From a virus (Duplodnaviria; Caudoviricetes): 52,506 bases of DNA. Shown piece after piece: positions 5,222-43,123 of the stretch (its first letter is position 1; each line of letters starts with the position of its first letter). The stretch lies in IMG/VR virus record IMGVR_UViG_3300048988_000011, positions 1-52,506 of that record; one strand, given 5' to 3'. The notes beneath the pieces were generated by a model. That model was not told the DNA's origin, ran no database searches, and saw only the letters and a program-made list of their open reading frames with translations. The translations under genes were made by a program, and so were the position numbers.

Positions 5222-5262
5222 TTTCTAAGCTCTCTTTTTCCCTAAGCTTCCTAGCAAGCAGA

Positions 5263-13304: not shown

Positions 13305-16300
13305 TTATTCCTTAGTATTCCAATAAGAATAAGATTTAGAAGCAGCAACCGGACGCGCACGATCACCAGCTGTGTAGATATACTGCTGCTGTTGAGTAAT
13401 AGCTGCTAATCTTTTCTGCTCTCTTCTTCTTTCTGCACTATCACCTTTACCTTTAAGATTAAAGGAGTTGATAGAGAACCAAGCCATTCCTGGAGCAAAG
13501 ATTGCATCATCGTGATGCCCCGCTAATGCTTCAATCTTTCTACGAGTTATATTATAACCGAAAGTAGCAAGCTGGTTAATAACGAACTGACAGGGGATCT
13601 CTACTTCAAAATCTCTAATAGCTCTAAGCCATTCAGATAGTAAAGCATCTCGTTGCTGCTGATTAGGCTCCCATCCTAATTGCTCAGAAGGATCTTTATA
13701 TTGCCGGATAGCAAGATTACGATTAGTGAAGAAATTCTTCCAGCCGGCTTTGATCATCTCTTGGATGAGTGCTGCACCTCCCTTAGGCCGTTCTATTACT
13801 AGTTTAGGCTGTTGGTATTGATTGTTGCGCACAGTAACATAAAGTTGAGAGATAGCTTGTAAGAAGGGGAGGGATTCAGCAGCAGATATTTCATTAGAGT
13901 AGAATGCCGCAACGATCTTATCAAGCGTCCCAGCCATGTAGTCTCCTTTGCGCATGACATAGATGCAGGTAAAGTCTTGCTGAACACCATCTCCGCAATC
14001 TTCTCCTATTTCATATTCTTCATTCTCATCTGGTAGTTCCCATACTAGCAATCTGCCAGCTAAACTCATTGGGGAATAGTCTCTTAGCTTTAAAGGATAG
14101 AGAGTATATTGGTTATGATAGAGATTATTATTAGACCATTTAAATGTCAAGGGGATAGTTGAGAGAGAAGAGTCTACTTCTGATGTTAGGAATTGATTAC
14201 GGAATGGGATTAATGACTTAGCGTCTGCTACACCAAAGATATAATCAGGGATACTGCTTCTCTCTCGCAGTTGTTCGATAAACTCAGCATCAAACATTCC
14301 GCTTCCTCTAATGGCAAATGCTTCTACTGATGAAGAGGGCATTTCGCACAACCAAGTTGCTAGTCTCTTTTCTCTACGCGCTTGGTTCTTATCCCATTCA
14401 TAAAACCATTTCTGTTCTAATGACATCTTCCAATCTGCACCAAGATATTTACGAAGTAGATCATTATGATACTTAACATCATTCTGGCACTTAATGGCAA
14501 CTTTCTCAGTCTCTTCTGATGGCTTGAAATCAGAAGGCATATAAGCACGAACATCAGCCCTAGTAGGATAGATATCAGAGGCTGCATACCATGCTAAGAA
14601 GATAGGATAGAAGCGAGACTCACCTCTAAAGTAATATTGGATAGAATCCTGCCAAAGTTGATGCCAGTAATCATCTACATATTTACCTGTTGATTCTAGA
14701 ACGAAGAAGAGTCTAGGATCATTATGAATTGACTTCATCAATGAATTCTGAATATCCTCCTTAGGATCAGTCCAGTCTGGAATTTCAGTACCGTGGAACG
14801 TATCAGGAGTCTCACCTCTACCAATACCTCCTGTTTGAGTTCCAAATTGAAGACGAACACGAGAGTTCATTAATGGAGCTTCATAGTAAACTTCACCTGA
14901 ATCATAAATCTTATAAGCTTTTTCTTCTAGTAATTGTCCCTTATCATTATGTTTTTGAATAGTAGGAAGAAGATACCAAGGGAGATTATCTATTACTGTA
15001 CCCATCTTAGAAGCTAATTCACGAGTCTTATCCTCTTTGGATGAAACAGTCATGCCACGAGTGCCTTCATAGAAGAGGGCACGATGAGACATACATACTT
15101 GATCGTCTGTTGAGTTATGAGAAACGAAGCCGTTAGCTATATAAGTTCCAGTAGTGGTTTGAAGATCAACCATTCGTTGATGGACTTCTAATTTCTCTAT
15201 ATTAATTATCTTAGTCCAAGCATCTTTAGCTCCATGACCTTTTCCTGGAAGTCCTTTTCCTTCCCACCAACGAGCATCAATAAAGCGAGAGGGTCTGGTT
15301 TGTCCCATTAATCGGAATAACTCATTTATCCTTTGGAGATGAACCTTGGCAACAGGTTTACTACCAAGTTTACTATTAACTCCAGCCTCTCTATTATCAA
15401 TAGTTACTCGATAATTATAATTTCTATCAGCAAAATATTTAATAATCCTATCAAGTACTAATCCGGGAGTTTGTGTAACAGTAACTTCCACCCCTTTCCT
15501 ATATTCACCATTACTTGTTGACCATCTATAGCTTCCTTCTCCATCTAGTATTCCACTCATCCAACCATCTTCAAATGTTGATTCTTCCCAAGGATCTGAT
15601 ACATGCCTAATAGCATCACCAAGCTGAAAGTTATTAACCTTTCTCCATTCTGTTCCCGGAGCAATTCTATTGCCTTTTGTTCTCATCTTACATAAAAATC
15701 TATGGTCAGCAGTAGCAATAAGTGTTGCTCCATTCTCCATAGTAATTTTATATGTTGGTTCAGTTACATCAAACTTAGCCAAGACTGTAGCAGTTCTTAA
15801 CTTTCTACCAGCTACCTTACCTATTGAGCCTTCATCAGCTGCTATTATTTCTTCTCCTACTATTAAATCATCTATTCTTTTCCATTCCAATTTAGCTGTT
15901 AGTACTAATGTATCAGGAGAAAGGCAGGCACCCACCTGTCGCGTTTTCAACTCTTGGATGAAGATACCTATTCCCTTTAGCTCCATCTCAGCACGAACAT
16001 CGTTGATGATGAGTTGAGCTATGTTAGGTTGGTAATAATCTAATCCTTTTGAATTCCAATGTAAGATCTTGCAGTAGTTGCGAGCATAGTGAAGGTAATC
16101 AAACGTGCAGAGAAGCCTCTCATTCTGGATGAATTGGAGTTCGTCCTTTTGAAGAGGGCGAGATAGTTCTAGTTTGCCTCGATCCCTCCAGAGATCTTTA
16201 TTAATTAGATCTGTTAGTAAAGAGGAGCAGGTACGGATGTAATCGAAAGGGTAACGCTGTAACTCAAATTGGATTGAGGACTGCGCTATTTCGAGATTTC

Positions 16301-16325
16301 GTTGGATGATTTGGGGGTGGTACAT
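13305..16325 (-). CDS. terL: Terminase large subunit (intein-containing)
   Basis: 'PNIAQ' adenine-binding motif, Walker A 'LKTRQVGA|ST' split by intein, Walker B 'FHGTE', coupling motif 'EST', nuclease 'IGEDCGDG' and 'HDDAI'. Confidence 0.9.
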   Translation of the reverse strand: MYHPQIIQRNLEIAQSSIQFELQRYPFDYIRTCSSLLTDLINKDLWRDRGKLELSRPLQKDELQFIQNERLLCTFDYLHYARNYCKILHWNSKGLDYYQPNIAQLIINDVRAEMELKGIGIFIQELKTRQVGACLSPDTLVLTAKLEWKRIDDLIVGEEIIAADEGSIGKVAGRKLRTATVLAKFDVTEPTYKITMENGATLIATADHRFLCKMRTKGNRIAPGTEWRKVNNFQLGDAIRHVSDPWEESTFEDGWMSGILDGEGSYRWSTSNGEYRKGVEVTVTQTPGLVLDRIIKYFADRNYNYRVTIDNREAGVNSKLGSKPVAKVHLQRINELFRLMGQTRPSRFIDARWWEGKGLPGKGHGAKDAWTKIINIEKLEVHQRMVDLQTTTGTYIANGFVSHNSTDDQVCMSHRALFYEGTRGMTVSSKEDKTRELASKMGTVIDNLPWYLLPTIQKHNDKGQLLEEKAYKIYDSGEVYYEAPLMNSRVRLQFGTQTGGIGRGETPDTFHGTEIPDWTDPKEDIQNSLMKSIHNDPRLFFVLESTGKYVDDYWHQLWQDSIQYYFRGESRFYPIFLAWYAASDIYPTRADVRAYMPSDFKPSEETEKVAIKCQNDVKYHNDLLRKYLGADWKMSLEQKWFYEWDKNQARREKRLATWLCEMPSSSVEAFAIRGSGMFDAEFIEQLRERSSIPDYIFGVADAKSLIPFRNQFLTSEVDSSLSTIPLTFKWSNNNLYHNQYTLYPLKLRDYSPMSLAGRLLVWELPDENEEYEIGEDCGDGVQQDFTCIYVMRKGDYMAGTLDKIVAAFYSNEISAAESLPFLQAISQLYVTVRNNQYQQPKLVIERPKGGAALIQEMIKAGWKNFFTNRNLAIRQYKDPSEQLGWEPNQQQRDALLSEWLRAIRDFEVEIPCQFVINQLATFGYNITRRKIEALAGHHDDAIFAPGMAWFSINSFNLKGKGDSAERRREQKRLAAITQQQQYIYTAGDRARPVAASKSYSYWNTKE
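15114..15926 (-). mobile_element. Intein (271 aa) with one LAGLIDADG-like motif, inserted in TerL Walker A
   Basis: Starts CLSPDTLV, block B 'ATADHRF', 'WMSGILDGEGS', ends 'YIANGFVSHN' followed by Ser. Confidence 0.92.
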
Positions 16326-21989: not shown

Positions 21990-22334
21990 CTATTCTAGCT
22001 CCGGGTACCTCGCGGTTACTGCTAAGATATGTGCCCTCTTTTCATCATCATCCCCACCCCACTTAGAGTAAATCTCCTCCCAAGTTAATCCCCCATCACG
22101 TCGCTGTATAGTCATCTTCTCCATAACAGAATCATCTAGCATGATTAACGGTAGTTTATTACTAGGCTGAGTGAGATCCACATGCAAATACTCTGCCAGG
22201 GTTTGATTGACTAACTTGCTCATTGACCACCCTTCGCCCAACTCAGCTGCCTTCTGGCATATGGCTTGCTTTACTCGCGGGTCAAGGGTGAAAACGACTG
22301 GAATCTTGGTTATTTTTGTAGAGTTTTTGTACAT
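21990..22334 (-). CDS. Ribbon-helix-helix regulator, paralog of 21406..21909
   Basis: 'VVFTLDPRVKQAI...SMSKLVNQTL'; shared C-terminal 'GL.W' and 'R[WY]P'. Confidence 0.7.
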   Translation of the reverse strand: MYKNSTKITKIPVVFTLDPRVKQAICQKAAELGEGWSMSKLVNQTLAEYLHVDLTQPSNKLPLIMLDDSVMEKMTIQRRDGGLTWEEIYSKWGGDDDEKRAHILAVTARYPELE

Positions 22335-22342
22335 AATATGGA

Positions 22343-22371
22343 TACTAGTATAGATATTTTCTCATGTCAAC
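22343..22371 (-). promoter_or_regulatory. Sigma-70-type promoter, probably leaderless transcript
   Basis: TTGACA-N17-TAGTAT, ATG about 7 nt downstream, no SD. Confidence 0.55.
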
Positions 22372-22855
22372 TCCATAACAATAAAAAATTTCTTTCATCT
22401 AATTGTTGATTCTACTAGCTTTACCAGCTATATATGAATAACATAAGAAATAATAAGTCACTTTGTAAGGGGGGTAGAGTAATATAATTAATATTATATC
22501 GTAATAATGTATGTACTAACTCATACATTAATACTTTGATACACTCTACTGTTCTCGTGTTTGTGGATTTCTAATACTTAGCTCTGCTTGATGGCCTAAG
22601 TATCTGAGGAAGAAGGAGATATTAGTTAATATGTGAAATTTTGAAATTAATATAAATAGTTGATTTTAATATAGCTGTTATATAGAAAATATAGGAGATA
22701 AAAATAAATTTAGGGGGAAAATGAAATTAGAAAAAATTGTGCGAGGGGCCTTCTCCCTGACCATCCACCTTTCCGCTACCCTTTCGACTATGGCCTTCTG
22801 CTGCCTACCTTATATACTCCTGGCCAGATCGTTGAACAATCGTTTAACTCGTTAT

Positions 22856-22868
22856 ATATCAATGAGTT
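22856..22868 (+). promoter_or_regulatory. IHF-like binding site
   Basis: TATCAATGAGTTA matches WATCAANNNNTTR and lies in the palindrome TTTAACTC-N-GAGTTAAA; second match on minus strand near 22653-22665. Confidence 0.45.
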
Positions 22869-23049
22869 AAACATGTTTAGAGCATAGAGCAGACCATATA
22901 GTGCATCATCATACGCTTTGCGAATTGTTGTGATGATTAGACTTAGCCCAGATATCGGTCAGGGTGGCGCACCATTTCGTGCATTGTAGTGATGCGCTAC
23001 GGTCTGATAACTAGCTCTATTTGCAACACTTTGCATCGAAGCATGATGA

Positions 23050-23065
23050 TGGCACACTCCCTGCC
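23050..23065 (+). promoter_or_regulatory. Sigma-54 (-24/-12) promoter
   Basis: TGGCAC-ACTCC-CTGC with exact GG-N10-GC spacing; GCAC-N6-GTGC and GCAT-N7-ATGC palindromes at 22969-22996 resemble enhancer-binding sites. Confidence 0.6.
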
Positions 23066-23074
23066 ATAGTCGAT

Positions 23075-23500
23075 GCCTGACAGCGCAGTTGGTAGAACGC
23101 TGGTCGTGCTAGTGATGCTAAGCACTCAACCGAAAGCCCTAGTCTGATTATTAGTAGCAATACTAATACTATCACACTTTTGTTGGCCGGAGTGCCACTG
23201 ATTAAAACCAGTGCTGATCTAGATGCTAGGCGAGGAGCCTAGTAGGCACGATACCGAAACCCAACTGTAACTTGCTAGGTGACTAGCAAGATACCGAACC
23301 GCACGGTATGGCCGCGCAGTACTACCCCTAACAAAGGTAGAGACTAGCAGAGATCGGACTGTAATGCAGCACTGGCAAGGTGCAATAGTGTGGGGCATAC
23401 TCTACGCCTAGCTAGCTGATGCTTAGCTTGCCCAAAGACTAGTTCTAGGAATACGAGATTCATAAGTCCTTATCTAGTCGCCAGAGCTAGGGCTAAGTAA
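23075..23500 (+). ncRNA. Putative large structured non-coding RNA (unclassified)
   Basis: No ORF; nested helices gctaagca/tgcttagc, gctaggcg/cgcctagc, cttgctag/ctagcaag, atacc/ggtat; starts at expected sigma-54 TSS. Confidence 0.5.
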
Positions 23501-23623
23501 TGTTATTAGGTAGAGTGTGAAAGCTAATTCGATTAACTGATTCTTACTGCTATTACTCTTAGGAGTGATACTAGATAAGATAGGTTAAGAGAGTTAGCTT
23601 TTCTTCTCTCTAATCTCTAAATT

Positions 23624-24156
23624 GGAGAGTGGGCCAGTCAATAGAATCTAATAGCTTAACCTTGGAGGCTAAGCCCGGCTACTCCTGTGCTTAGTTTGCT
23701 TCTGTCCCGCTATGGCTCATGCTGCTTGCTCCGGCCATTCAGGAGCACGTTACTCTTCCACGGCGGAGCTCCAAACCAAAGGAGATGAAAATGAAAAACG
23801 ATAATCTAAGAGACGCAGGACAACTCAATTTTCACCCAGAGGATCGACCAGCGGGTCATCCAGATCACTATAGATGCTCAGCATGTAACCTGATCATCAC
23901 AGATCTGGATCTGTCAATCTCATCACACCCGAGAGATTGTCAGATCGCCTACCCGCACGTAGACCCCACAGTGGCTTATCACCTCGTTGGTGTCCTTGAC
24001 GGCGGCGCGTACGGCCACCCAATAAGCCAGTGCGGCGAAAGCTGCACTGACGGGCCGCAACCCTACCTTGCGGGTTTGACCAAAGCGCGCTAGCCACGGT
24101 ATCCATTCGCGACTACCCAACAATGCTATTAGATTCTATTGACTGGCCCACTCTCC
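23624..24156. repeat. Perfect 32-bp inverted repeat enclosing a GC-rich gene
   Basis: ggagagtgggccagtcaatagaatctaatagc (23624-23655) and its exact reverse complement (24125-24156). Confidence 0.95.
23791..24093 (+). CDS. Hypothetical Cys/His protein inside inverted repeat
   Basis: AAGGAG SD before MKNDNLRD; CSAC motif; GC-rich codons unlike the rest of the genome. Confidence 0.6.
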   Translation: MKNDNLRDAGQLNFHPEDRPAGHPDHYRCSACNLIITDLDLSISSHPRDCQIAYPHVDPTVAYHLVGVLDGGAYGHPISQCGESCTDGPQPYLAGLTKAR

Positions 24157-24175
24157 TCAGGAAAAAGAGAAAGGT

Positions 24176-24352
24176 AGAGGGTAGGCTGAATTGAGGATAG
24201 CACTTTTAATTAGAGCACACTAACATTGCTAAGTTAGCTACCAATAAGGCGAGATAGCCTAGCCAATCGGCAATACTTAATGGTATTAAACGCTAACACT
24301 AACGCAAACAGTCTCTTGTATTAATTGCTATCCTCTACTCAGTCTATTCTCT
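24176..24352 (+). other. Long RNA stem with non-coding loop
   Basis: 24176-24202 pairs with 24326-24352: 14 bp (3 G-U), 3x3 internal loop, 10 bp. Confidence 0.75.
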
Positions 24353-24374
24353 GCTTATTACTCGATTCCTGCTA

Positions 24375-24703
24375 AGTTACTAATTGAGAGATAGGCCAAT
24401 ATAGAGTAGGAGCACATCAGCATCATTTCCTCAGGAGGATAACTGATTATGCCTAAATCGTTAAGTACATCCAAGTTCATTAAGGTGAGCAAGAGTTTGT
24501 TTACCTTGACATTAGTGTGGATTGAAATGGAATGCTGGCTTAGAGATTTCAATAGCTCAGCATTAACCAAGCAACAAGCTAAGATGGTAATGAAGGCCGT
24601 CTTAGCTAAGCATCCTAACGCAGTACAGATTCTTCCATCTTAGTTAGTTCAATGGCTACTAATTGCTCCTACCTTATATTGGCTTATCTTTCTCTTAGTA
24701 ACT
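24375..24703 (+). other. Long RNA stem enclosing ORF 24449..24643
   Basis: 24375-24414 pairs with 24664-24703, with G-U pairs and two small internal loops. Confidence 0.8.
24449..24643 (+). CDS. Hypothetical protein inside stem
   Basis: 64 aa, AGGAGG SD. Confidence 0.6.
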   Translation: MPKSLSTSKFIKVSKSLFTLTLVWIEMECWLRDFNSSALTKQQAKMVMKAVLAKHPNAVQILPS

Positions 24704-24745
24704 GTAATCAATCGTTACTCTATAGAGAGTAGCGAAACAGTCTTT

Positions 24746-24837
24746 TGCGGACTGTAAGAGACTTCACTAGGATCGTCATAAATAGTCTGCTAAGCATGAC
24801 GCGACGCTTAGCCTTAGTGAAGTCAATAGAGTCCGCA
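24746..24837 (+). other. Stem enclosing an H-type pseudoknot
   Basis: tgcggact/agtccgca and gacttcactagg/cttagtgaagtc; inside, cgtcat/atgacg plus gctaagc/gcttagc. Confidence 0.65.
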
Positions 24838-24864
24838 TAATTCTAAGTAGAGGAGAATAGAGAT

Positions 24865-25440
24865 ATGCCAGTAACGAAATTACACGATAAGCTTAGACTG
24901 CCTACCATGAGCATAGCAGAAGTAAAGCTTGCTCGTAGTGCTGAACTAGATCTTTTCGTAGCACGCTCAATCGAGTTTGCTACTAGGCAAGCTAGAAACA
25001 GTAGAAGTAGACGCACTCTCTACGGCAGAGGGCAACATTCTGATACTAAGATGCTGAACTCTGAGATGCTTCACTTTCCCGCTATACTACCCTCTGGGGT
25101 AAGCGGAAAAGATGCGATAGGCGAATTGCCTAAGAAGGGTGTTCGGATAGGTGAGGCAGGCAAGCAACGGCCAGCAAAGGCCGGTTGTCGCTCTATTGTG
25201 GTCGTCAGGAAACAAGATCTGCGGAAGCAAGGCTTTCCTGATGATATGATCACTGCTATGCTAAAGGATCAAGCGCAGAGGATCAGAATCCCTGCCAAAA
25301 AGGTAGCTGAATGCAAGAGAATCCAGTTGATGTTGGCGCATGATGATGATAGGATAGTCAAGGGAAATGTGCTGAGTCCGAGAGTCAGCATTACTGAGGC
25401 TTTGGTGATTGCTGAGACAGTGCAGACGGAGCAGTTCTGA
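24865..25440 (+). CDS. Hypothetical basic protein
   Basis: 191 aa, GAGGAG SD. Confidence 0.65.
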   Translation: MPVTKLHDKLRLPTMSIAEVKLARSAELDLFVARSIEFATRQARNSRSRRTLYGRGQHSDTKMLNSEMLHFPAILPSGVSGKDAIGELPKKGVRIGEAGKQRPAKAGCRSIVVVRKQDLRKQGFPDDMITAMLKDQAQRIRIPAKKVAECKRIQLMLAHDDDRIVKGNVLSPRVSITEALVIAETVQTEQF

Positions 25441-25740
25441 TTAGTATGCTCTCTCCTACCATTCTGAGTGGTAGAGAGACTGGATGCTAAATCCAACCAC
25501 AAAATCTGTCAAATGAGGAGAAAAGAGAAGATATGATTAAATTCCTTCGCAGACTTCATTATAGACGCGAGGCAGGACACAGAATGCATAGAGATCGCGT
25601 CTCTAACCGCTTCTCGCGGTGTGACTGTATCTTTGTTGCTGATGTGATTAGCAGCAAGGTGAGGCTAGCTAAGGAGGTTATTTCCTCTGTTGTTAATTAG
25701 CTAATAATGCTGATGCTAAGCTAAGGAGCTAGAAGAGATG

Positions 25741-25865
25741 TAAGCTCTGCACCTTCTTACTGTTGCTGAGATACCTATGATAACCCTATGGTAGATAGGT
25801 AGAGCCACAATTTAATTTATTACTATTAGGCTCAATCAGTAACAGTAAGAAGTCAGGAGAACTTA
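25741..25865 (+). other. RNase III-site-like stem (copy 1)
   Basis: 17-bp stem 25753-25769/25836-25852 with asymmetric internal loop; shares agaagtcaggagaactta with copy 2. Confidence 0.75.
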
Positions 25866-25893
25866 TCATTTTCATTAAATGAGGAGAGAAAAG

Positions 25894-26322
25894 ATGACCC
25901 AAACAATAACTAAAGATAATGCATTAGCAGTCTTAAAGGATAAGATCAATTATGATAATTGGATTAATGCAGCTATGCGATGTGAGCAAGAAGGTACTAG
26001 AAATAGTGCTTTGAATGCTAAAATAACTGCTGCTTATGCTGCTTATGCTTATGCTGCTTATGCTGCTACTGCTGATGCTTATGCTGCTACTGCTTATGCT
26101 GCTACTGCTGATGCTTATGCTACTTATGCTGCTGCTGCTGATGCTTATGCTACTTATGCTGCTGCTGCTGATGCTGCTACTGCTTATGCTGCTGCTGCTG
26201 CTGCTACTGTTTATGGTGACAAAAGAGATGAAGTACTAACATTAGCAGCTGAAATCTGTGTAGAGGCTTGCATACTCTGCAAAACACAAGGAAGTGCGTT
26301 TTTAGAGATTACCAATAACTAA
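25894..26322 (+). CDS. Protein with Ala/Tyr low-complexity repeat
   Basis: AAYAAYAYAA... tract encoded by gctgcttatgct-type repeats at about 26025-26210. Confidence 0.7.
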   Translation: MTQTITKDNALAVLKDKINYDNWINAAMRCEQEGTRNSALNAKITAAYAAYAYAAYAATADAYAATAYAATADAYATYAAAADAYATYAAAADAATAYAAAAAATVYGDKRDEVLTLAAEICVEACILCKTQGSAFLEITNN

Positions 26323-26388
26323 GTAAGTTTTACACCTTCTCATTCCTCTGTAATTTACAGCTAAGAATGAGAAGTCAGGAGAACTTAC
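26323..26388 (+). other. RNase III-site-like stem (copy 2)
   Basis: gtaagtttt-acac-cttctcattc ... gaatgagaag-tcagg-agaacttac. Confidence 0.75.
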
Positions 26389-26425
26389 AATTAAGTAAGT
26401 TACTACCATAATAACTGTTAGGAAA

Positions 26426-26580
26426 GAAGATTACTCGGCAGGTAGTAGAACCAACGGCGTAGCAGGACGCTATATGAGACGGCTTTGGTTAGTATGAATG
26501 CGCTTATTGCTCGAATAGGCCTTTGGTAACGTACGATACTGAGGACTTAATACCTGTCTACTACCTGCCGAGTAATCTTC
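26426..26580. repeat. Perfect 24-bp inverted repeat with 107-nt structured loop
   Basis: gaagattactcggcaggtagtaga / tctactacctgccgagtaatcttc. Confidence 0.9.
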
Positions 26581-26620
26581 CTACTAAGAATGAAAGAAGA
26601 AAGAAGGAGAAAGAGAAGAG

Positions 26621-27073
26621 ATGGCCGATCAAATGACCGCAGCACAAATAGCTGCAATAACTGATCCTGCGCTACGTGCACAGGTTGAGGCGCTCTTAGC
26701 TGAGCGCAATACCTTAGCTAAGAAAGTTAAGGAAAAATCACCTACTTGGGTAGAGTTAGGTGATTATGGCAAAGGGAAAGCGGGGGTGCAGGTTTCTAAG
26801 AAGGGGCAGGTACAGTTCACTGGGACGAGGAAAGCTTATGGTGGGCTTTACTTATTCGAGACTGAGTTAGTTATGATTCTGAGTAATGCTCAGAAGATCG
26901 CTGAGTGGGTTGTTCTGCATCATGAGGAGTTGAAGAGGAAAGTTGTTGTTGCTCCTGCTGGTGATGCTAGTAATGATCCTACAGTAATTTCAGGAGAAGG
27001 CTCTGGTCCTGAACAAGCTGGTGGAGGTGAAGAAGAGAATACTAATACAATAACTGAGACTGCTTCTGCTTAA
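26621..27073 (+). CDS. Hypothetical protein
   Basis: 150 aa, AAGGAG SD. Confidence 0.7.
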   Translation: MADQMTAAQIAAITDPALRAQVEALLAERNTLAKKVKEKSPTWVELGDYGKGKAGVQVSKKGQVQFTGTRKAYGGLYLFETELVMILSNAQKIAEWVVLHHEELKRKVVVAPAGDASNDPTVISGEGSGPEQAGGGEEENTNTITETASA

Positions 27074-27162
27074 CTGCTAGAAGTAGAGAGGCTATTGAAC
27101 TTCTCCTCTAGGCTATTAGCTATTAAAATGCTAATAGCTCTGAGCGGAGGTTTAAAAAAGAG

Positions 27163-27472
27163 AATGAGCTACTTATCTGGTCAAGTAATCTGTAACTTAG
27201 AGAACTTTCAACCTTTCTGTGTTCTAGATCCATTTGATAGTCGCAGTAATTCTAATCATCCTAAACTATTTACTCATTTCCTAGTAGTAGGAACTGGGGA
27301 GATATATGTAGGACATGTTAGATGCAAAGATGACATTGAGACAGAATTAGCAATAGCTAGAAAGCTAATAGAAGATGAAAAGATAGCTCCTGGCATTGCT
27401 AGAGGATTAACTGGTTGTCTTAGGCGGCTAGATGTGCAATTAGATAATGAATGGAGTTGTGAGCAGGCTTAA
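27163..27472 (+). CDS. Hypothetical protein
   Basis: Probable start MSYLSG after GGAGG; the upstream extension in the ORF track is a hairpin (27098-27152). Confidence 0.55.
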
Positions 27473-27475
27473 GAG

Positions 27476-27691
27476 ATGCTATCGTTATACCAAGCAATGA
27501 CCAATAATTACATACCTAGACGCAATCATCTAGGCAGTAAGCTAGGATTAAGGAAGCGTAAGCAGTTATTGAGATACTATAAATGGACTGCTGAACTAGC
27601 TACTGCCATTTCTCGGCTAATGTCTAATATGGAATTAGTAAGGCTAGGTTTAGCTGAGATTGATGAAGTTGAAGATTGTGAGGAGGTTTAA
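27476..27691 (+). CDS. Hypothetical protein
   Basis: 71 aa ORF in operon. Confidence 0.5.
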   Translation: MLSLYQAMTNNYIPRRNHLGSKLGLRKRKQLLRYYKWTAELATAISRLMSNMELVRLGLAEIDEVEDCEEV

Positions 27692-27700
27692 CACAAAGAG

Positions 27701-27826
27701 ATGGCAAAAAGTAGCAAGATCCAAGTAATAATATTTACTGTTGCTATTGTTACACTAGCTGCTTCATTAGCTGGCTGGATAGTACTGGTAGCAATAGTAA
27801 TTCACTTCTTAGTGAAGTATTGGTAA
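27701..27826 (+). CDS. Small membrane protein
   Basis: Hand-translated MAKSSKIQVIIFTVAIVTLAASLAGWIVLVAIVIHFLVKYW; AGGAGG SD. Confidence 0.55.
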   Translation: MAKSSKIQVIIFTVAIVTLAASLAGWIVLVAIVIHFLVKYW

Positions 27827-27832
27827 AAAATA

Positions 27833-28012
27833 ATGAGCAAGCCAAAAGAGAAGCTAGAACGTCTACAACAAAGGCTTGACTGCCTAAATGCACGGTTTGC
27901 AAGCTCGTCTATGTTAAGTTTTGAGGATGAGAGACGTGAGGCTTCTGCATTACGTTGGGCAATTACTCTACTAACAAATCTTATTAGTAAGAAGGATAAG
28001 AGAGATGCTTAA
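27833..28012 (+). CDS. Hypothetical protein (59 aa)
   Basis: Hand-translated MSKPKEKLERLQQRL...; fills gap between genes. Confidence 0.5.
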   Translation: MSKPKEKLERLQQRLDCLNARFASSSMLSFEDERREASALRWAITLLTNLISKKDKRDA

Positions 28013-28265
28013 ATATCGTGCTAATTGTCAAAACTGTATTGACAATATTATGCATATCCACATCAAGGATGAGATTCCTACTATCTACATAACACTATCA
28101 GGTGGAGTAGTAGCTCAACTATTATCTGATCTGCCAGCTAATGTCTTCATCATTGATGAAGATAATGGGAGAGCAGGTGAAGTTGAGATTGAGGAGTGTA
28201 ACTTGGTAGGAATTACCGAGTCTAACTGTGATATGTTAGAGGAGATGAGGAAAAAATGTCAGTAA
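28005..28265 (+). CDS. Hypothetical protein
   Basis: 'ITLSGGVV......NVFIIDEDN' pattern seen in small phage proteins. Confidence 0.55.
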   Translation: MLKYRANCQNCIDNIMHIHIKDEIPTIYITLSGGVVAQLLSDLPANVFIIDEDNGRAGEVEIEECNLVGITESNCDMLEEMRKKCQ

Positions 28266-28477
28266 TGAGTACCCAAAAGAGAAAGTTATCTAATGTTAGA
28301 ATGCTTAAGTCAAAGGGCATTCCTATTAACTCTTCTCTTAACCATTTACGACGCATTCAGAATATTAGAGCTAAGCAAGCTATTAATTTAGCTAATCATC
28401 TTAGTGCTAATACTGTTGCTGAGGAGATTGAGAATAAGAATGAGTCAGACTCAACAACAACAACAGGATCAGAGTAA
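28256..28477 (+). CDS. Hypothetical basic protein
   Basis: 73 aa ORF. Confidence 0.45.
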   Translation: MSVMSTQKRKLSNVRMLKSKGIPINSSLNHLRRIQNIRAKQAINLANHLSANTVAEEIENKNESDSTTTTGSE

Positions 28478-28618
28478 AAAGCCTATGGAGGGTTTTGGAC
28501 GCTTTGAAAGCTTAATCAACTAGCTAGAGAGCTATGTAGAAAATTCACTCCAAATCGTGTCTTGAATAATCCTCACATCAAGAGTATGATGATGCCCCAT
28601 TTTCTAACTCTTTGAGAA

Positions 28619-28743
28619 AGAGAAGTTTACGCCTTAGTAGAGCCTGAACCTCAAGTATAGTCTATGAGCATTCTAGAGCGAGGGATTCTTGTACTACTAA
28701 CAGCTAATACCTGTAGTAGTTCTACTAAGGCGTAAGCCTCTCT
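28619..28743 (+). other. Long RNA stem with branched loop
   Basis: gtttacgccttagtagagc / gttctactaaggcgtaagc (19 bp, 2 G-U). Confidence 0.75.
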
Positions 28744-28807
28744 TCTATCTAACAATTAGCAGTAGAGGCTAATTCTGAGAAGAAAGAGAAAGAGAGGGAT
28801 AAACCAA

Positions 28808-30346
28808 ATGATTGAATTTACTAACGTAATGATTGATCCTAAGCTTGCTGCTAACCTCTCATCTCTTAGTAATAATGAAGAGAAAGAGAAAGAAGAAGAG
28901 AAGCAAAAGATAATTCCGATTAGCTCTCTACCTTCTTTAATAGGTCAGCCATTAAAGGTATTGATTCCTGATAACTATATTACTCCAACAGGGGTTAAGG
29001 AGATTAGGAATTATATACTGCGTAGTTATTGTACTGATCGTTACTATCTTGATCTGATCAAACTCCCAGAAGAATCTACAGAGGATTTCGTCTGGGTGTG
29101 GTTAGATCCTAAGCATGGTACGCTACCAAAAAGGATGCGTAGATGGCTAAAGAAGAGGATTAAAGCTGATCCTGATCCTGCTATCTTAGCAGAGATAGGG
29201 AATATTGCTAGACGGAATTCTGAATCTGCTCAAGAATACTATTTTGAGATAACAGATGAGATAGAATGGTCTAGCACTGAGTTCGGACAAGCCTCTAATG
29301 GTAGCTGTTGGTGGACTAGCGGGAGTAATGGAGAATATAGCGGTCCTAGTCCTAATAGCTATTGTAGAAACTTCTTAGCTGAAGGAGGACTAGCAGTTAA
29401 GTTCTTCAAATCTCACGAAGATAGAACTAATAGTAATGGAATAGGTAGAATGTGGATTATGATTAATCCTACTAATGCCTTCTACGGCACTGATGCTAAT
29501 AACTGGGCAGTTCTATTCAACGGCTATTGGGAAGGACAAGGTGCCACTCTTAAGCTTAGCAGAATATTAGCTACTTATCTTGGGTTAGGGTATCTTAAGA
29601 TATTAGTTGAGCCGGGGCAGAGATTCTACATTAATAAAGATGCGGGGTATTTGCTAGGTGAGCAGAGCTTGATACAGAAGCTACATGCTAAGATTGCTGC
29701 TGTTAGTGATGAGATTGCTAGCATTAACATCCCTAGAGTAATTCCTATGGAGTTCTGTAATATCTGTAGTAGCTCTAAGGAGAAAGCTTCTTTCCAAGAG
29801 ATACTAGATAATACTAGAAGCTCTATAAGAATGTGTGAAGGATGCTTTGTTGATTTATGTGTTCGGTGTACTAACTGCGCTGATAAATTTGATAAGCGTT
29901 CAGTAATGCTAACAACTGTCTATAATGTTGACAGACTTAATAGAGCTTCGCAGTACTGTGATCAATGCCTTACTCGATATGCTGCAATTTGTGCAGGACC
30001 TTGTGGTAGGACTATAATTGCTAGTAACTACTACAATAGTAGCATCGAAGATAGAAAAGTATGCAAAGATTGCAGTCCTAAAATTCCTAGATGCAAATCT
30101 GATTACTGTAGAAGAAGAACTCTACAAGTAGATGCTATGGGAGATAGCTACTGTAATAACTGTCAAGATGAATTTGAGAGAGAGATCCAACTACCTGAGA
30201 TTGACCTTTTGACTGATAACTTTGTCGTTTCAATAGTAGAACATAATCCTTGGAATGAAGATAATGGTTATCGTGCAGCAGACCCATATGGGGGGTGTCA
30301 ATGTTCTGTCTGTAGGAATGATAGGATAAGTAAGCTATGGGGATAA
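28808..30346 (+). CDS. Hypothetical protein with C-terminal CxxC repeats
   Basis: 512 aa; 'SCW', 'IGRMWI', 'YIN' motifs and many CxxC. Confidence 0.75.
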   Translation: MIEFTNVMIDPKLAANLSSLSNNEEKEKEEEKQKIIPISSLPSLIGQPLKVLIPDNYITPTGVKEIRNYILRSYCTDRYYLDLIKLPEESTEDFVWVWLDPKHGTLPKRMRRWLKKRIKADPDPAILAEIGNIARRNSESAQEYYFEITDEIEWSSTEFGQASNGSCWWTSGSNGEYSGPSPNSYCRNFLAEGGLAVKFFKSHEDRTNSNGIGRMWIMINPTNAFYGTDANNWAVLFNGYWEGQGATLKLSRILATYLGLGYLKILVEPGQRFYINKDAGYLLGEQSLIQKLHAKIAAVSDEIASINIPRVIPMEFCNICSSSKEKASFQEILDNTRSSIRMCEGCFVDLCVRCTNCADKFDKRSVMLTTVYNVDRLNRASQYCDQCLTRYAAICAGPCGRTIIASNYYNSSIEDRKVCKDCSPKIPRCKSDYCRRRTLQVDAMGDSYCNNCQDEFEREIQLPEIDLLTDNFVVSIVEHNPWNEDNGYRAADPYGGCQCSVCRNDRISKLWG

Positions 30347-33750: not shown

Positions 33751-33779
33751 TAACAAAAGGGAAGAAGAGTTAACAGGAG

Positions 33780-33981
33780 AAGGCACATACAATACTAAAC
33801 TACTACTTCTTATAGCAGCACAAAGCTAATCTCGATTGTATATATTATATAGAATATAGAAGAGATTAACTGACACAGAAGATAAAAGTGAAAGCACAAC
33901 ACTGGAAAGAACGAGCAAGCAGGGCAAGATAAGAGATTATCTGTAAGTCTATAGAAATAGTAATAGTAAAGTATGTGCCTT
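33780..33981 (+). other. Long stem with about 130-nt non-coding loop
   Basis: aaggcacatac / gtatgtgcctt plus adjacent imperfect pairing. Confidence 0.55.
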
Positions 33982-34032
33982 AGCAAGTTAACTGTCATTA
34001 GCATAAGGAGAAAAGGAAAGGAAGGAGGTTAG

Positions 34033-34440: not shown

Positions 34441-35496
34441 ATGCATAATATTGCCGTTATAAACGGACGTGAAGCAATGAGCTACTCCGGCATTCCACCC
34501 TGGCATGAGCTAGGAGCAGAGTTAACTAGAGTAGACTCGGTAGAGACTGCACTTGCTGAGGCTAATCTTGATTGGAATGTTAGTAAGCATCCTGTTTACC
34601 TAAGTGGTAATGAGCTTACTAATGATCCAGAGGGATTAGAGCCAAATGGTAGGTTCCTATTAGGAAATGAGATCAAAGACATAAAAGCAGTCGTAAGAGA
34701 TATCGACTCAGAGATCTTAGGCACAGTCGGCTCTCGATATCAACTAATTCAAAATGCAGAAGCATTTGCTCCTCTACAGTATGCTATAGATAACTATGGG
34801 GCTACTATAGAAACAGCGGGAGCACTAGGGAAGGGTGATAGGGTTTGGATGCTCTTAAAGTTAGCATCACATTCTCTAGAAGTATCTCCAGGAGATGTAA
34901 TAGAGCCTTACTTCTTAGTGTCAAACTCTCATACTAGAGAGCGATCTCAGACACTAACAGCAAGATTTACTCCTGTTAGAGTAGTATGTCAGAACACACT
35001 AGATGCTGCTACTTCTGCCTCTAGTGTAGCAGATATATCAATCCGTCATACAGCTAGTGCTCAAGGGAGATTAGCTGAGATAGAGAGATTAGTAGAATCT
35101 GTCTTAATTCAGCATACTTCTACGGTAGAAGTCTATCAACAGCTACAGCAACAGCCTATCTCTATTGTAGATATGGCTGAATTCTTACTAGAAGTATGGC
35201 CTGTGCCTGCTGATGATCAATTAGCTGAGATGCAGATATTAAGAGAAGACTATAAACCAACTGAGGAACATTATCGAAGGAATAGTCTTTTCTTATTCCA
35301 GAACGGTAATGGTCATGAGCTAGCGGGGAGTACTGCATTCGGTGCTTATCAAGCTATCACAGAATTAGTGGACCATGCTGCAGTAATGCGATTAGATGGT
35401 AAGAGAAAGACGCAGGGAAGTATGTCTGCATTGTTCGGAACTGGTGCTGTTACTAAGAAGAGGGCTTTAGAGATAGCAAGGCAGAGGTGGCTTTGA
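34441..35496 (+). CDS. DUF932 family protein
   Basis: 'PPWHELG', 'ANLDWNV', 'LGTVGSRYQLIQNAEAF', 'ETAGAL..G.RVW', 'TPVRVVCQNTL'. Confidence 0.85.
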   Translation: MHNIAVINGREAMSYSGIPPWHELGAELTRVDSVETALAEANLDWNVSKHPVYLSGNELTNDPEGLEPNGRFLLGNEIKDIKAVVRDIDSEILGTVGSRYQLIQNAEAFAPLQYAIDNYGATIETAGALGKGDRVWMLLKLASHSLEVSPGDVIEPYFLVSNSHTRERSQTLTARFTPVRVVCQNTLDAATSASSVADISIRHTASAQGRLAEIERLVESVLIQHTSTVEVYQQLQQQPISIVDMAEFLLEVWPVPADDQLAEMQILREDYKPTEEHYRRNSLFLFQNGNGHELAGSTAFGAYQAITELVDHAAVMRLDGKRKTQGSMSALFGTGAVTKKRALEIARQRWL

Positions 35497-35730
35497 TTAG
35501 CAGTAGGAAATCTGAGTGCCCTATCAGCATATTTCCTGCGCGGCAAATAATTCTTGATAAAAAGTTGAGGAAATGTTACAAAATAAAGAAGTCGCTGGAC
35601 TCGTCGGTTCAATGCTAGGCAGAGGCAAGCGCACTCTCCCAAACTTAAGGGAAGAGAGTCTCTGCCTAGTATCCTTCGTTATCCAGTCTTTCCTACTTAG
35701 TCCTAGTAAGGTAAGAGTCCAGGAGCTAAA

Positions 35731-41658: not shown

Positions 41659-42477
41659 ATGTCAGTAGAAACAGCAACAGCGCCAGCAGAAGGAACAGAA
41701 GCAACTGGCACAACCGAACAACCAACTACTTCTGTAGCAGAAGCAGAATCAGCAGCAACAACAGCAACAAACGGAGCAGGGTCAGATCTCAATCATCTAG
41801 TGCTAGGCGATACAGAAGATGATGTTGACCCAGATGCAGATGCAGATGCAGTAGTCCTCCCACCTGAGAGCCTTAACCCAGTTACTCTGCGCCTTAAAAC
41901 AGGTAAGAAAGGCGTTTACGGCCCTACTAAGGATAAGGATGGTAACCTGCTTGATAAGCCTAAGGTAAGCGCGAACGATGGAAGGCCATTCTTCGTAGCT
42001 GAGGTAGAAGCTTATATAGTAAGCGATGATCCTACATGGGATGGCACTAGGATCTTCTCGTTCCCTGACGCACTTATGCAGGGAATCTATTTAACTAGCC
42101 TTAAGGATAGAAAGACTAATACTAGTAGGGCGGCAGATGTAGCTAGTAAATGTGGCTATCCGTTCCAGAAGGGGAATACTATTAACGGAAATGCTGAACA
42201 TCTTCGTCAGTTACTAGCTGCTGAGCCTACCATTAAGGCCGTTATTCAATGGCAGGCAACTAAAGAAACAGGGGAGACTGATGAGGGAGGTTATGCGCAG
42301 AGGATTATTGCGAAACGAGGGGAGAAGAACTTCCCAGTTTTAACCGATAAGGAAGGCAATCAGGTCTTTAATGCGGCAGGTGCTCCTGTACATAGTGCCA
42401 GGATGGAAGACCCTCAGGACGGAAGTGAGTTGGTTGCTAGAGCGGTTATTGTTAGGTTCTTGCCTATCAATGGTTAG
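41659..42477 (+). CDS. Putative ssDNA-binding protein
   Basis: Acidic N-terminus, beta-rich core, follows Sak4-like gene; positional inference. Confidence 0.45.
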   Translation: MSVETATAPAEGTEATGTTEQPTTSVAEAESAATTATNGAGSDLNHLVLGDTEDDVDPDADADAVVLPPESLNPVTLRLKTGKKGVYGPTKDKDGNLLDKPKVSANDGRPFFVAEVEAYIVSDDPTWDGTRIFSFPDALMQGIYLTSLKDRKTNTSRAADVASKCGYPFQKGNTINGNAEHLRQLLAAEPTIKAVIQWQATKETGETDEGGYAQRIIAKRGEKNFPVLTDKEGNQVFNAAGAPVHSARMEDPQDGSELVARAVIVRFLPING

Positions 42478-42501
42478 CTGCAATTAGCTATTGAGAAGGT
42501 A

Positions 42502-42570
42502 GGGAGAAGGGAAGGTTTGCTTTGTCGGGGGTGCACCTTCCCTTTCTTTTTTCTTTTTTATTTTTTATTT
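42502..42570 (+). terminator. Rho-independent terminator
   Basis: gagaagggaaggt / accttccctttct stem followed by long T tract. Confidence 0.8.
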
Positions 42571-42581
42571 GAGGAAAAATT

Positions 42582-42833
42582 ATGGTAGTTTCTATTACAA
42601 AAAATCAAGAGCATATCACTAGAGCATTCGATGAAGCTTGGACGAAAGCAGATAATGAAAGCATAAAAGTAGGACCAGTAGTAGCAGATAAGATGCTGTT
42701 GTTCAAAGAGTTAGCAAAGGAATTCTATTTCAAGGGTTATGCTCAATGTGCTAACGATACTGTAGGAAAGGTTGGTGATGTACTTTCTACCTTGCGAGAA
42801 TTAGATAATATCTGGTTCAAGAATAGTAATTAG
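42582..42833 (+). CDS. Hypothetical protein
   Basis: 83 aa, GAGG SD. Confidence 0.6.
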   Translation: MVVSITKNQEHITRAFDEAWTKADNESIKVGPVVADKMLLFKELAKEFYFKGYAQCANDTVGKVGDVLSTLRELDNIWFKNSN

Positions 42834-42836
42834 CTA

Positions 42837-42866
42837 TTGACATATTAGTAATAGTAGTATTACTAT
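42837..42866 (+). promoter_or_regulatory. Sigma-70-type promoter overlapped by palindrome
   Basis: TTGACA-N18-TACTAT; tagtaata-gtag-tattacta palindrome. Confidence 0.5.
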
Positions 42867-42914
42867 CTCTTCGAGCATAGTTATTTGAACTAAACGAAAT
42901 GGAAATGGAAATGG

Positions 42915-43065
42915 AAATGAACTCTAGTCAAAGTCAAGGTTTCTAAGCAGTTCTATTTTCATCTTCTGCTTAGGACAGGTCGAATCGTTGAACCTGTTCC
43001 TCCCTTGGCCTTGGCTATTGAGCCTCTAGGAGCTATCGGCAGGCAAGCAAGTAGCTCCTAGAGAG
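42915..43065 (+). ncRNA. Structured leader (branched helix plus hairpin)
   Basis: tagtcaaagtcaagg/ccttggccttggcta, tctaagcag/ctgcttagg, acaggt/acctgt, ctctaggagcta/tagctcctagag. Confidence 0.5.
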
Positions 43066-43123
43066 ATTATCAACCACTAACCACTAACAGTAACACTATC
43101 AAACAAAAGGAGATAGAAAGAAA

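Follow-up and report, generated by a model that had tools for sequence, protein, structure and literature searches.

Candidate RNA processing elements in an uncultured soil phage: long intercistronic stems of its rightward operon

The stem array and its placement

In an uncultured soil phage, represented here by a 52.5-kb window (the whole stretch of DNA that was analysed), long self-pairing stems crowd the beginning of the rightward operon. The helices are far beyond chance and thermodynamically dominant, and on balance they are read here, with modest confidence, as RNase III-type processing, stabilising and insulating elements on an early polycistronic transcript. All ten helices proposed by the first-pass annotation were located, with coordinates exact or off by 1-4 nt, and are numbered S1 to S10. 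Their plus-strand fold z-scores range from -3.8 to -10.6, and in 1.3-kb context folds the pair probabilities of S1-S4, the upper helix of S6 and S8-S10 are about 0.95-1.00, with per-helix ranges down to 0.81. The array exceeds the span originally flagged, adding a structured leader (22700-23623), an eleventh helix, S11 (33768-33993), and further hairpins.

A strand-neutral stem score was computed for the whole window, and its six top long-range pairs (32, 26, 24, 20, 16 and 15) all fall in 23.6-28.7 kb, while the maxima in five block shuffles were 12-15. In a comparison set of eleven unrelated phage loci (~180 kb) the maximum was 18; when the six highest pairs of that set were inspected, the two with the clearest arms proved to be repeated palindromes, not stems. 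Plus-strand windows with outlying stability are likewise concentrated in this part of the phage, 11 of 17 lying in 22.8-29.2 kb.

Every stem falls in a gap between ORFs of a single series of genes that all point the same way, and lies on the operon's sense strand. By coordinate arithmetic, about a third of the region from 23.6 to 28.8 kb is non-coding, and about 70% of this non-coding DNA lies inside stems. Purine runs of 14-30 nt are found 3' of S1, S5, S6, S8 and S10. Sigma-70-like sites were not enriched in the promoter search (10 found versus 17.1 expected) and none was identified as a promoter; terminator-like sites were not enriched either. Searches for relatives found no close or syntenic phage, and a search for an RNA run containing the stretch found none.

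Individual stems, strand bias and loop contents

All elements described below are on the plus strand. The array is preceded by a structured non-coding leader (22700-23623), outside the coordinates of the first-pass annotation, with a fold z of -9.6 on the plus and -5.4 on the minus strand. It is GC-richer, with 0.45-0.54 in 22900-23499 versus 0.22-0.34 immediately upstream; no ORF on either of its strands exceeds 59 aa, and a comparison with Rfam gave no match.

The first-pass annotation had described loops enclosing a gene with its ribosome-binding site, and this is correct for S1 and S3, which hold one ORF each with an AGGAG-type site included. S1 (23624-24156; arms 23624-23655 and 24125-24156) is a perfect 32-bp long-range helix with z -10.6 and a pair probability of 1.00 in a 1.35-kb context. 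Both arms, minus their outermost 2 nt, are on one 529-nt unitig of the source run. The 469-nt loop contains gene A (23791-24093, 100 aa), with AGGAG 6 nt upstream of its ATG. The GC content of this loop is 0.54 versus about 0.40, and the composition of gene A is unlike the rest of the phage. Its product weakly resembles MBG_2 (YGX-type) repeat units found in giant proteins, and a homologue search by shared words found none. S3 (24375-24703; arms 24375-24414 and 24664-24703; z -9.9) has 40-nt arms with 34 Watson-Crick pairs, three G-U, one A-C and two transversions, and 28 of 29 inner pairs are kept in the context MFE. Its 249-nt loop holds gene B (24449-24643, 64 aa), which is preceded by AGGAGG and had no match in PHROG. 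Between these two lies S2 (24172-24356; z -6.5), a long-range helix with arms of 27-31 nt, a non-coding loop of ~120 nt and a context pair probability of 0.96-1.00.

Gene C (24865-25440) lies between S4 and S5. Upstream of it, S4 is a two-part hairpin of 92 nt (24746-24837; z -5.2), whose outer eight pairs have a probability of 0.91-0.99 in the context fold. S5 (25441-25489), a 49-nt hairpin starting 1 nt past the gene C stop codon, is the weakest of the ten (z -3.8 on the plus versus -2.0 on the minus strand). S6 and S7 are paralogues located on either side of gene E (25894-26322), both with z -5.7. S6 (125 nt, 25741-25865) is made of a lower helix and, beyond an internal loop, an upper helix of 17 bp; the upper helix has a probability of 0.87-1.00, and the lower one competes with a partner at 26258-26273. 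S7 (66 nt, 26323-26388), a hairpin that begins 1 nt past the gene E stop codon, is a direct-repeat copy of the base of S6, and the 3' strands of the two share an identical 18-nt run.

S8 (26426-26580; arms 26426-26449 and 26557-26580) pairs perfectly over 24 bp and closes an unstructured non-coding loop of 107 nt, with z -8.3 and a mean context pair probability of 0.97. The S9 hairpin (27095-27155; z -5.8; probability 0.81-0.98) contains in its 3' arm the GGAGG of the next gene, 13 nt upstream of the ATG at 27164. S10 (28618-28744; z -5.0) has arms of 24-26 nt and an unstructured loop of 75-79 nt, with 17 inner pairs at a probability of 0.94-1.00 in the context fold, and is followed by a 512-aa gene (28808-30346). 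Further along, the long-range helix S11 (33768-33993), with 30-nt arms forming 24 Watson-Crick pairs, occupies a 690-nt gap between two genes (z -5.4 plus, -5.9 minus), and another intercistronic hairpin of the same operon is found at 35612-35672 (z -6.0 plus versus -3.3 minus).

In eight of the ten stems the plus strand has the lower z; for S4, S10 and S11 z is slightly lower on the minus strand. In the leftward operon, the single strong hairpin (5165-5235) has z -7.4 on the minus versus -4.3 on the plus strand. An excess of G-U mismatches on the plus strand, claimed by the first-pass annotation, held in direction for arms defined by plus-strand folding (20 G-U versus 7 A-C, p 0.019), but lost significance with strand-neutral arms, for which the counts were 8 versus 3 in six strong stems (not significant) and 8 versus 5 when all pairs were scored (p 0.58). 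In the imperfect stems S2, S3, S9 and S10 pairing is retained and the changes are mostly wobble-compatible. Reading of the S6 and S7 upper helices shows three pairs changed on both sides with pairing kept. The common feature of the stems is pairing, not sequence: among 110 arm comparisons S6/S7 was the only one equalled by none of 300 shuffles, while S7/S10 (p 0.003) and S1/S3 (p 0.01) fail correction for 110 tests.

Branched non-coding domains had also been proposed within the loops. These are weakly supported for S2 (z -2.3) and S6 (z -2.6) but not for S8 (z +0.4) and S10 (z +1.4), whose interiors are no more structured than their shuffles; the idea of small RNA domains is weakened because these two loops are unstructured. 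Duplex DNA should not be able to extrude loops of 75-469 nt as cruciforms, so pairing would need a single strand.

Possible roles of the stems

We infer that the region is transcribed as one RNA, that RNase III cuts it and that this affects stability or translation. Host RNA polymerase would produce one long plus-strand message with its start near 22.7 kb, where the region is AT-rich and divergent, and as this message folds each stem would become a 20-40 bp double-stranded RNA element, a natural substrate of host RNase III. Cuts at the local hairpins (S4-S7 and S9) would separate the cistrons, and the upstream message would keep a protective hairpin at its 3' end, while cuts in the long-range S1 and S3 would release a single-gene message with its two ends still paired. 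The cargo-free S2, S8, S10 and S11 could provide the same processing or insulating signal, and the purine-rich leaders with ribosome-binding sites after most stems may protect the new 5' ends. The earlier proposal of RNase III-substrate-type helices on an early message is partly supported, by their intercistronic sense-strand position, lengths of 24-40 bp, the plus-strand bias of eight stems and the loops of 75-469 nt. Against it stand the loss of significance of the G-U excess with strand-neutral arms, the slightly lower minus-strand z of S4, S10 and S11, the negative promoter search, and S1 and S8, which are perfect helices. Old RNA helices usually contain some wobble pairs, so the perfection of these two points to a recent origin or to a DNA-level process keeping the arms identical. 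In addition, RNase III might cut a long perfect duplex several times, and not leave neatly clamped ends. The idealised E. coli RNase III substrate is described as 22 bp (PMC3867540), and single-strand RNase III cuts are described as leaving stabilising 3' hairpins (PMC3867540).

The same folding, placement and strand evidence would fit RNA helices with another job, such as shielding untranslated RNA from Rho and single-strand nucleases, insulating the folding and translation of cistrons, gating ribosome-binding sites or serving as double-stranded decoys or sponges for host factors. The position of the GGAGG in the S9 stem agrees with gating, the 0.9-kb leader is highly structured with no obvious paired-arm design, and, Rho acting at untranslated RNA, the unusually large non-coding share would need protection from it. 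Such a role is nonetheless rather unlikely: it leaves unexplained the two helices that enclose exactly one cistron each, and regular helices of 24-40 bp are expected (PMC3867540) to be RNase III targets in nearly any bacterium unless protected, and therefore a role that avoids cutting would need antideterminants. The arms might instead be DNA elements, namely the terminal inverted repeats of MITE-, Correia- or MPME-like small mobile elements, boundaries of invertible segments that a recombinase switches, or short-homology recombination substrates by which cassettes are shuffled or inverted. Perfect repeats of 32 bp in S1 and 24 bp in S8 are expected if recombination or recent transposition keeps arms identical, and the unstructured 75-107 nt interiors of S8 and S10 resemble small inverted-repeat elements. 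The foreign composition of the S1 loop, a Sak4-like annealing protein encoded in the window and the direct repeats of S6/S7 around gene E, a layout able to delete or circularise the gene as in the PeSL cassettes described in PMC2839356, also fit this explanation. So does a minor assembly branch (depth 9 versus 28) that leaves the sequence at 23598, 25 nt upstream of S1, in the source run; this run exists solely in the form of k=31 contigs, which are broken at the repeat.

Even so, a DNA-level origin is judged unlikely. Arm sequence differs from pair to pair, with S6/S7 the sole exception, and therefore one transposase or invertase could not serve all of them. None of the elements is flanked by a target-site duplication; exact matches were absent for a 22-nt core of the S1 arm in metagenome_contigs and in genome_contigs, and for a 20-nt core of the S8 arm in viral_contigs; and matches to the Resolvase and Phage_integrase families are absent from the window, in a genome only about 80% complete. 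Together, the unique arms and the lack of target duplications, of copies elsewhere and of a recombinase in the window weigh against transposon and invertible-segment readings, as does the tendency of the sense strand to fold more strongly. Gene capture by cassettes, as the first-pass annotation envisaged it, is unsupported, the GC-rich S1 gene and the assembly branch being circumstantial hints. A quite improbable explanation is that the repeats are functionless by-products, such as quasi-palindromes that arose through template switching in replication and are tolerated in a non-essential region. It would agree with the perfection, and hence possible youth, of S1 and S8, with interiors of S8 and S10 that resemble featureless spacer, and with the absence of any instance of conservation in relatives. 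However, at least eleven separate structures occur in one operon, all between cistrons and with no ORF disrupted, the imperfect stems still pair, and nothing comparable occurs in the eleven unrelated phage loci.

Comparison with known systems

The early precursor RNA of phage T7, of ~7000 nt, is described as carrying five RNase III signals (PMC3867540). As in T7, strong helices lie between the cistrons of an early operon that the host polymerase presumably transcribes; like the T7 sites, S4-S7 and S9 fold locally, into hairpins of 49-125 nt that contain internal loops, and S5 and S7, directly past stop codons, could be 3' stabilisers. Unlike T7, five of the helices are long-range, with loops of 75-469 nt, two of them enclosing a whole cistron, and several stems are regular duplexes of 24-40 bp, which should be cut on both strands. 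No sequence similarity was established. The early transcript of phage SP82 reportedly has intercistronic double-stranded sites followed by purine-rich sequence resembling a ribosome-binding site, similar to the purine runs seen here after five stems; it is not known to have long-range gene-enclosing helices. The sites in SP82 early RNA are for B. subtilis RNase III (cited in PMC4838370), while nothing indicates a Bacillus-like host for the present phage.

Neisseria Correia elements are described as intergenic and co-transcribed, ~100-160 nt long with inverted repeats of ~25 nt, and as forming RNA hairpins that bind RNase III and are cut or protected (PMC2649163). S8 (155 nt, 24-bp arms) and S10 (127 nt) are alike in size and shape; however, the Correia family has many copies that share a conserved core, whereas the elements here, S6/S7 excepted, are unique. 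The promoter-early stem-loop (PeSL) cassettes of T4-type phages are described as small orphan genes bounded by stem-loops in a plastic early region, and the direct repeats flanking gene E give a layout that would allow PeSL-like gene exchange or circularisation (PMC2839356). The PeSL is described there as a repeated motif, a sigma-70 promoter with a short terminator hairpin (PMC2839356), whereas neither kind of site is enriched here. The helices of this phage are also much longer, mostly unique and in several cases long-range.

Inverted repeats bound invertible segments such as the G segment of phage Mu, the Hin/Gin systems and gut 'invertons', and the perfect 24-32 bp repeats here similarly surround 100-500 bp containing a gene (S1) or spacer only (S8); unlike such segments, they have arms that differ between pairs and no recombinase gene was found in the window. 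In the leader-trailer stalks of bacterial rrn operons, the sequences flanking 16S and 23S rRNA come together across a long distance to form a regular helix with at least two turns. S1 and S3 have exactly the same long-distance geometry, but what they enclose is a small coding message, of 100 and 64 codons, instead of an rRNA.

Genome setting and prominence of the helices

The window is an entire IMG/VR virus record. It comprises 52,506 bases without end repeats, and its completeness is estimated at about 80%. Structural genes, including those for the portal, the major head protein and an intein-carrying terminase, run leftward from about 22.3 kb. An AT-rich divergent region (22.3-22.7 kb) adjoins the span of long stems flagged in the first-pass annotation. 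Small orphan genes in rightward orientation begin at 23.6 kb, which places the flagged span in the 5' part of the rightward operon. Replication genes come after them, their products being a Sak4-like annealing protein, a Dda-like helicase, an HNH endonuclease and a UDG-domain fusion of a family A polymerase. The minus-strand ORF of 1006 aa (13305-16325) has weak matches to terminase large subunits together with an Intein_splicing domain (E 5.8e-9); it seems to encode a terminase that is split by an intein. The 894-aa polymerase ORF (46242-48926) carries an N-terminal domain of the uracil-DNA-glycosylase superfamily.

All ten helices that had been reported in this span, here designated S1 to S10, were recovered at the reported positions by an inverted-repeat search, by ungapped views of the arms and by RNA folding. 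S1 (23624-24156) pairs perfectly over 32 bp, its arms lying 469 nt apart, and the equally perfect S8 (26426-26580) has 24 bp and a loop of 107 nt. The 40-nt arms of S3 (24375-24703) form 34 Watson-Crick and three G-U pairs, while S2 (24172-24356) and S10 (28618-28744) have arms of 24-31 nt. S4 (24746-24837), S5 (25441-25489), S6 (25741-25865), S7 (26323-26388) and S9 (27095-27155) are local hairpins, 49-125 nt in length. At 24-40 bp, the helices of S1, S2, S3, S8 and S10 reach about two turns, taking 22 bp as the reference, and S4, S6, S7 and S9 have about 20 pairs each when counted across an internal loop.

Compared with dinucleotide shuffles, the plus-strand folding z-scores range from -3.8 (S5) to -10.6 (S1). 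When stems were scored in a strand-neutral way, with G-U and A-C treated alike, the six top long-range pairs of the whole window (scores 32, 26, 24, 20, 16 and 15) all fell within 23.6-28.7 kb; the maximum was 12-15 in five shuffles of the window and 18 in eleven unrelated phage loci totalling about 180 kb. Among six of the highest-scoring pairs inspected in these control loci, the two with the clearest arms proved to be two copies of a short palindrome and not a stem. In 1.3-kb stretches folded whole, the pair probability is about 0.95-1.00 for S1 to S4, the upper helix of S6, S8, S9 and S10, so the long-range pairings are not an artefact of folding the elements singly. Moreover, an independent assembly of the source run gave a single 529-nt unitig spanning both arms of S1 except for the outermost 2 nt, which means that the reads themselves contain this repeat and that it did not arise in assembly. 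The source run was the only sequencing run found to contain the sequence, and no RNA run with the stretch was found. The array is thus a genuine and striking structure.

By arithmetic on ORF and stem coordinates, about one third of the region at 23.6-28.8 kb is non-coding, which is high for a phage, and about 70% of this non-coding part falls inside the stems. In a search for motifs shared by the non-coding parts, purine-rich words alone recurred. In the 924 nt immediately upstream of S1 (22700-23623) no ORF exceeds 59 aa, and the sequence is both richer in GC and strongly structured (fold z -9.6 on the plus strand versus -5.4 on the minus strand). Neither an Rfam match nor a tRNA was found in this stretch, which might represent a structured leader or a large non-coding RNA. 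Two copies of GATACCGAA are located in it on either side of a perfect 8-bp hairpin, at 23246-23303.

Further downstream, a long-range helix (S11, 33768-33993) and a hairpin (35612-35672) occupy gaps between genes, a second hairpin (34573-34629) lies inside the ORF at 34441-35496, and another (43024-43063) was scored by folding. In the gap at 42477-43124 a purine-rich arm is matched by a complementary pyrimidine-rich one that ends in a T run (42494-42559); judged by its sequence, this looks like the sole element of the rightward operon resembling an intrinsic terminator.

Contents of the loops and relationships among the arms

Two loops were found to enclose a complete gene together with its ribosome-binding site, as the first-pass annotation had proposed. 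In the loop of S1, AGGAG is located 6 nt before the ATG (23791) of gene A (23791-24093, 100 aa), and in that of S3, AGGAGG precedes the ATG of gene B at 24449. In both cases a long-range helix is formed from the two flanks of the enclosed message, as in a leader-trailer stalk of the rRNA type, with a pair probability in context of 0.95-1.00. The S1 loop has a GC content of 0.54 versus about 0.40 in the surroundings, and gene A is compositionally foreign. No homologue sharing words with its product was found, and an exhaustive search revealed a weak match to repeat units of giant surface proteins (Pfam MBG_2, YGX-type), on account of which gene A is probably a real small protein. Its product has a CxxC motif near the N-terminus and would be an unusual cargo among phage early genes.

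Several loops had been described as enclosing branched non-coding domains. This description fails for S8 and S10, whose interiors show no structure beyond that of shuffles (z +0.4 and +1.4), and holds weakly for S2 and S6, whose interiors are mildly structured (z -2.3 and -2.6); none of the four matches an RNA family. Since the loops are hardly structured, the supposed domains were largely produced by the folding program as it filled space. The helix itself is the feature in S2, S6, S8 and S10. The idea that the loops of S8 and S10 are small RNAs was likewise rejected, the interiors being unstructured and containing no plus-strand ORF of at least 30 aa. Rfam 15 gave no matches at the gathering score in the whole window and nothing but chance-level matches at E<=5 in 22300-29500, and no tRNA or tmRNA was found.

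A close or syntenic relative was not found in the collections searched. The region 23000-29500 had no blastn match in the phage collection. No related locus was detected in viral_contigs with the 512-aa protein (encoded at 28808-30346) or an alignment of its family, nor with the portal, PolA and 191-aa proteins, and the alignment detected none in metagenome_contigs either. For the 512-aa protein, four homologues were found, at 37-39% identity. The phrog_1221 protein led to eleven loci (24-36% identity) having that gene alone in common, and these served solely as negative controls for the stem scores.

Within the array, S6 and S7 offer the sole internal comparison. They have an identical 18-nt 3' strand, and in the upper helix three pairs are changed on both sides with pairing kept. 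Among 110 comparisons of arms, S6/S7 alone was at 0 of 300 shuffles; the similarities of S7/S10 (p 0.003) and S1/S3 (p 0.01) were lost after correction for the 110 tests. Judging from the arm sequences, then, what the stems have in common is pairing, not sequence. The arms that S6 and S7 have in common make alternative pairings possible. In the context fold, a thermodynamic prediction, the 5' base of S6 (25738-25752) finds a partner at 26258-26273, shortly before gene E (25894-26322) ends, with a probability of about 0.55; this pairing would loop out nearly all of gene E and compete with the lower helices of S6 and S7. Imperfect repeats of 9, 12 and 15 nt (GCTGCTTATGCT-like) make up a run of Ala, Tyr, Thr and Asp codons in the middle of gene E (25991-26230), which gives a low-complexity protein segment.

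RNA-level and DNA-level readings of the array

Four lines of evidence, namely placement, strand, wobble pairs and geometry, point to the sense-strand RNA; none of them is decisive. Most likely the helices act at the RNA level. Regarding placement, the stems at 23.6-28.8 kb are all located between plus-strand ORFs, and apart from the enclosed genes A and B no ORF of the operon is overlapped. S5 and S7 start one base past a stop codon. The 3' arm of S9 holds the GGAGG (27146-27150) of the next gene, which starts with the ATG at 27164, so that translation of this gene may depend on the opening or cutting of the S9 hairpin.

The folding z-score is stronger on the plus strand in eight of the ten stems, as also in the leader, and 11 of 17 plus-strand windows of outlying stability fall within 22.8-29.2 kb. 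In the leftward operon, the single strong hairpin (14 bp, 5165-5235), located between two leftward structural genes, folds more strongly from the minus (sense) strand (z -7.4) than from the plus strand (z -4.3); it probably acts in the late operon as an attenuator or a 3' stabiliser. As for wobble pairs, the first-pass annotation had noted an excess of G-U on the plus strand and taken it as a sign of selection on RNA. Among transitions the excess is seen (20 G-U versus 7 A-C, p 0.019) with arms taken from the plus-strand fold, a definition that itself favours G-U; with strand-neutral arms of the six strong stems the counts are 8 versus 3, which is not significant. Finally, arms 75-469 nt apart are not expected to extrude from duplex DNA, and their pairing would therefore require a single strand.

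It is improbable that the arms represent mobile or invertible DNA. None of the eleven elements S1 to S11 is flanked by a target-site duplication and, S6/S7 apart, no terminal sequence or arm family is common to them, although the arms of S1 and S8 are perfect, the composition of gene A is foreign and the interiors of S8 and S10 are featureless, all of which would suit such an origin. Exact searches of three public collections with arm cores of S1 (in metagenome_contigs and genome_contigs) and S8 (in viral_contigs) found no copy. Neither Resolvase (PF00239) nor Phage_integrase (PF00589) was matched at E<=1 in the window, a record about 80% complete, which speaks against an inverton with a site-specific recombinase nearby; a host enzyme might nevertheless act. 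A further point in favour of DNA rearrangement comes from the source run, in which a minor assembly branch (depth 9 versus about 28) departs at 23598, 25 nt before S1. The graph forks at 23569-23598, and the 27 loose letters of the branch occur nowhere else in the window, so it may represent a co-occurring variant with a different junction at this position. The k=31 contigs of the same run break at the 32-nt repeat of S1 and do not show the orientation of its interior; the run revealed no variants and no joints relative to the window, of which 22500-23568 is without cover. A MITE or Correia-like element was rejected in the light of the missing target-site duplications and of the lack of a multi-copy family with shared terminal repeats and core.

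Slightly less probable still is a view in which genes can dock repeatedly into the long-range stems as into a frame, these forming a cassette system set by RNA structure and not by a recombinase site. The empty, featureless loops of S8, S10, S2 and S11 would then be vacant slots. Foreign DNA arriving in a loop would obtain a ready-made processing and stabilising helix and become its own end-clamped message, as might be the case for S1 with its GC-rich, MBG-like gene and for S3, while paired or repeated arms such as those of S6/S7 would let units be swapped, lost or inverted via short-homology recombination of the phage. A cassette of the PeSL type, in which a repeated motif links a sigma-70 promoter with a terminator stem-loop, was rejected: 10 promoter-like sites were counted versus 17.1 expected and four terminator-like sites versus 5.0 expected, and none coincides with S1 to S10. 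The stems were also rejected as intrinsic terminators, which are short GC-rich hairpins with a U run behind them, none of the four terminator-like sites being located in a stem and the sequence after the stems being purine-rich.

Proposed processing of early messages and comparison with known systems

By analogy with other phages, the best-supported reading of the stems is that on the early transcript they would serve as double-stranded signals for processing and stability. Since the window has no match to an RNase III of its own, the enzyme acting on them would be that of the host; cutting of the stems, its sites and its effects are inferred. Cutting of the T7 early transcript at double-stranded sites is textbook knowledge, these sites being small local hairpins, and the geometry of long-range helices closing loops is familiar from ribosomal RNA maturation. 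If confirmed, the array would provide simple, portable RNA parts to insulate and stabilise single genes in operons, as well as a handle on the gain and loss of orphan early genes.

According to PMC3867540, the T7 early precursor has five RNase III signals, the substrate of the E. coli enzyme measures 22 bp in idealised form, and cuts in one strand leave protective 3' hairpins. The early RNA of SP82 carries sites for B. subtilis RNase III, as cited in a passage of PMC4838370, and a purine-rich stabiliser resembling a ribosome-binding site is reported for SP82 RNA (Hue et al. 1995, cited in a passage of PMC7509114); in the array, purine runs of 14-30 nt are present after S1, S5, S6, S8 and S10. 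Gene-enclosing helices in phage messages were not found described in the full-text literature searched, the scope of which lies outside subscription journals and supplements.

The array resembles other known elements in part. PeSL cassettes of T4-type phages likewise place stem-loops around orphan early genes (PMC2839356). They consist of a repeated motif of promoter and terminator, and the array shows no enrichment of sites of that kind. Correia elements, as described in PMC2649163, are intergenic inverted-repeat elements that can act as RNase III hairpins; however, they form a multi-copy family, whereas the arms here are mostly unique. In contrast to T7 and SP82, the helices here include long-range, regular ones, two of which have the geometry of an rRNA-processing stalk around a small message. 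A single operon combines hairpins like those of T7 with regular helices of 24-40 bp, whose spans reach 469 nt and which enclose whole genes or nothing. On these comparisons, the array is best regarded as a variation on the processing signals of phage early mRNA rather than a novel kind of system.
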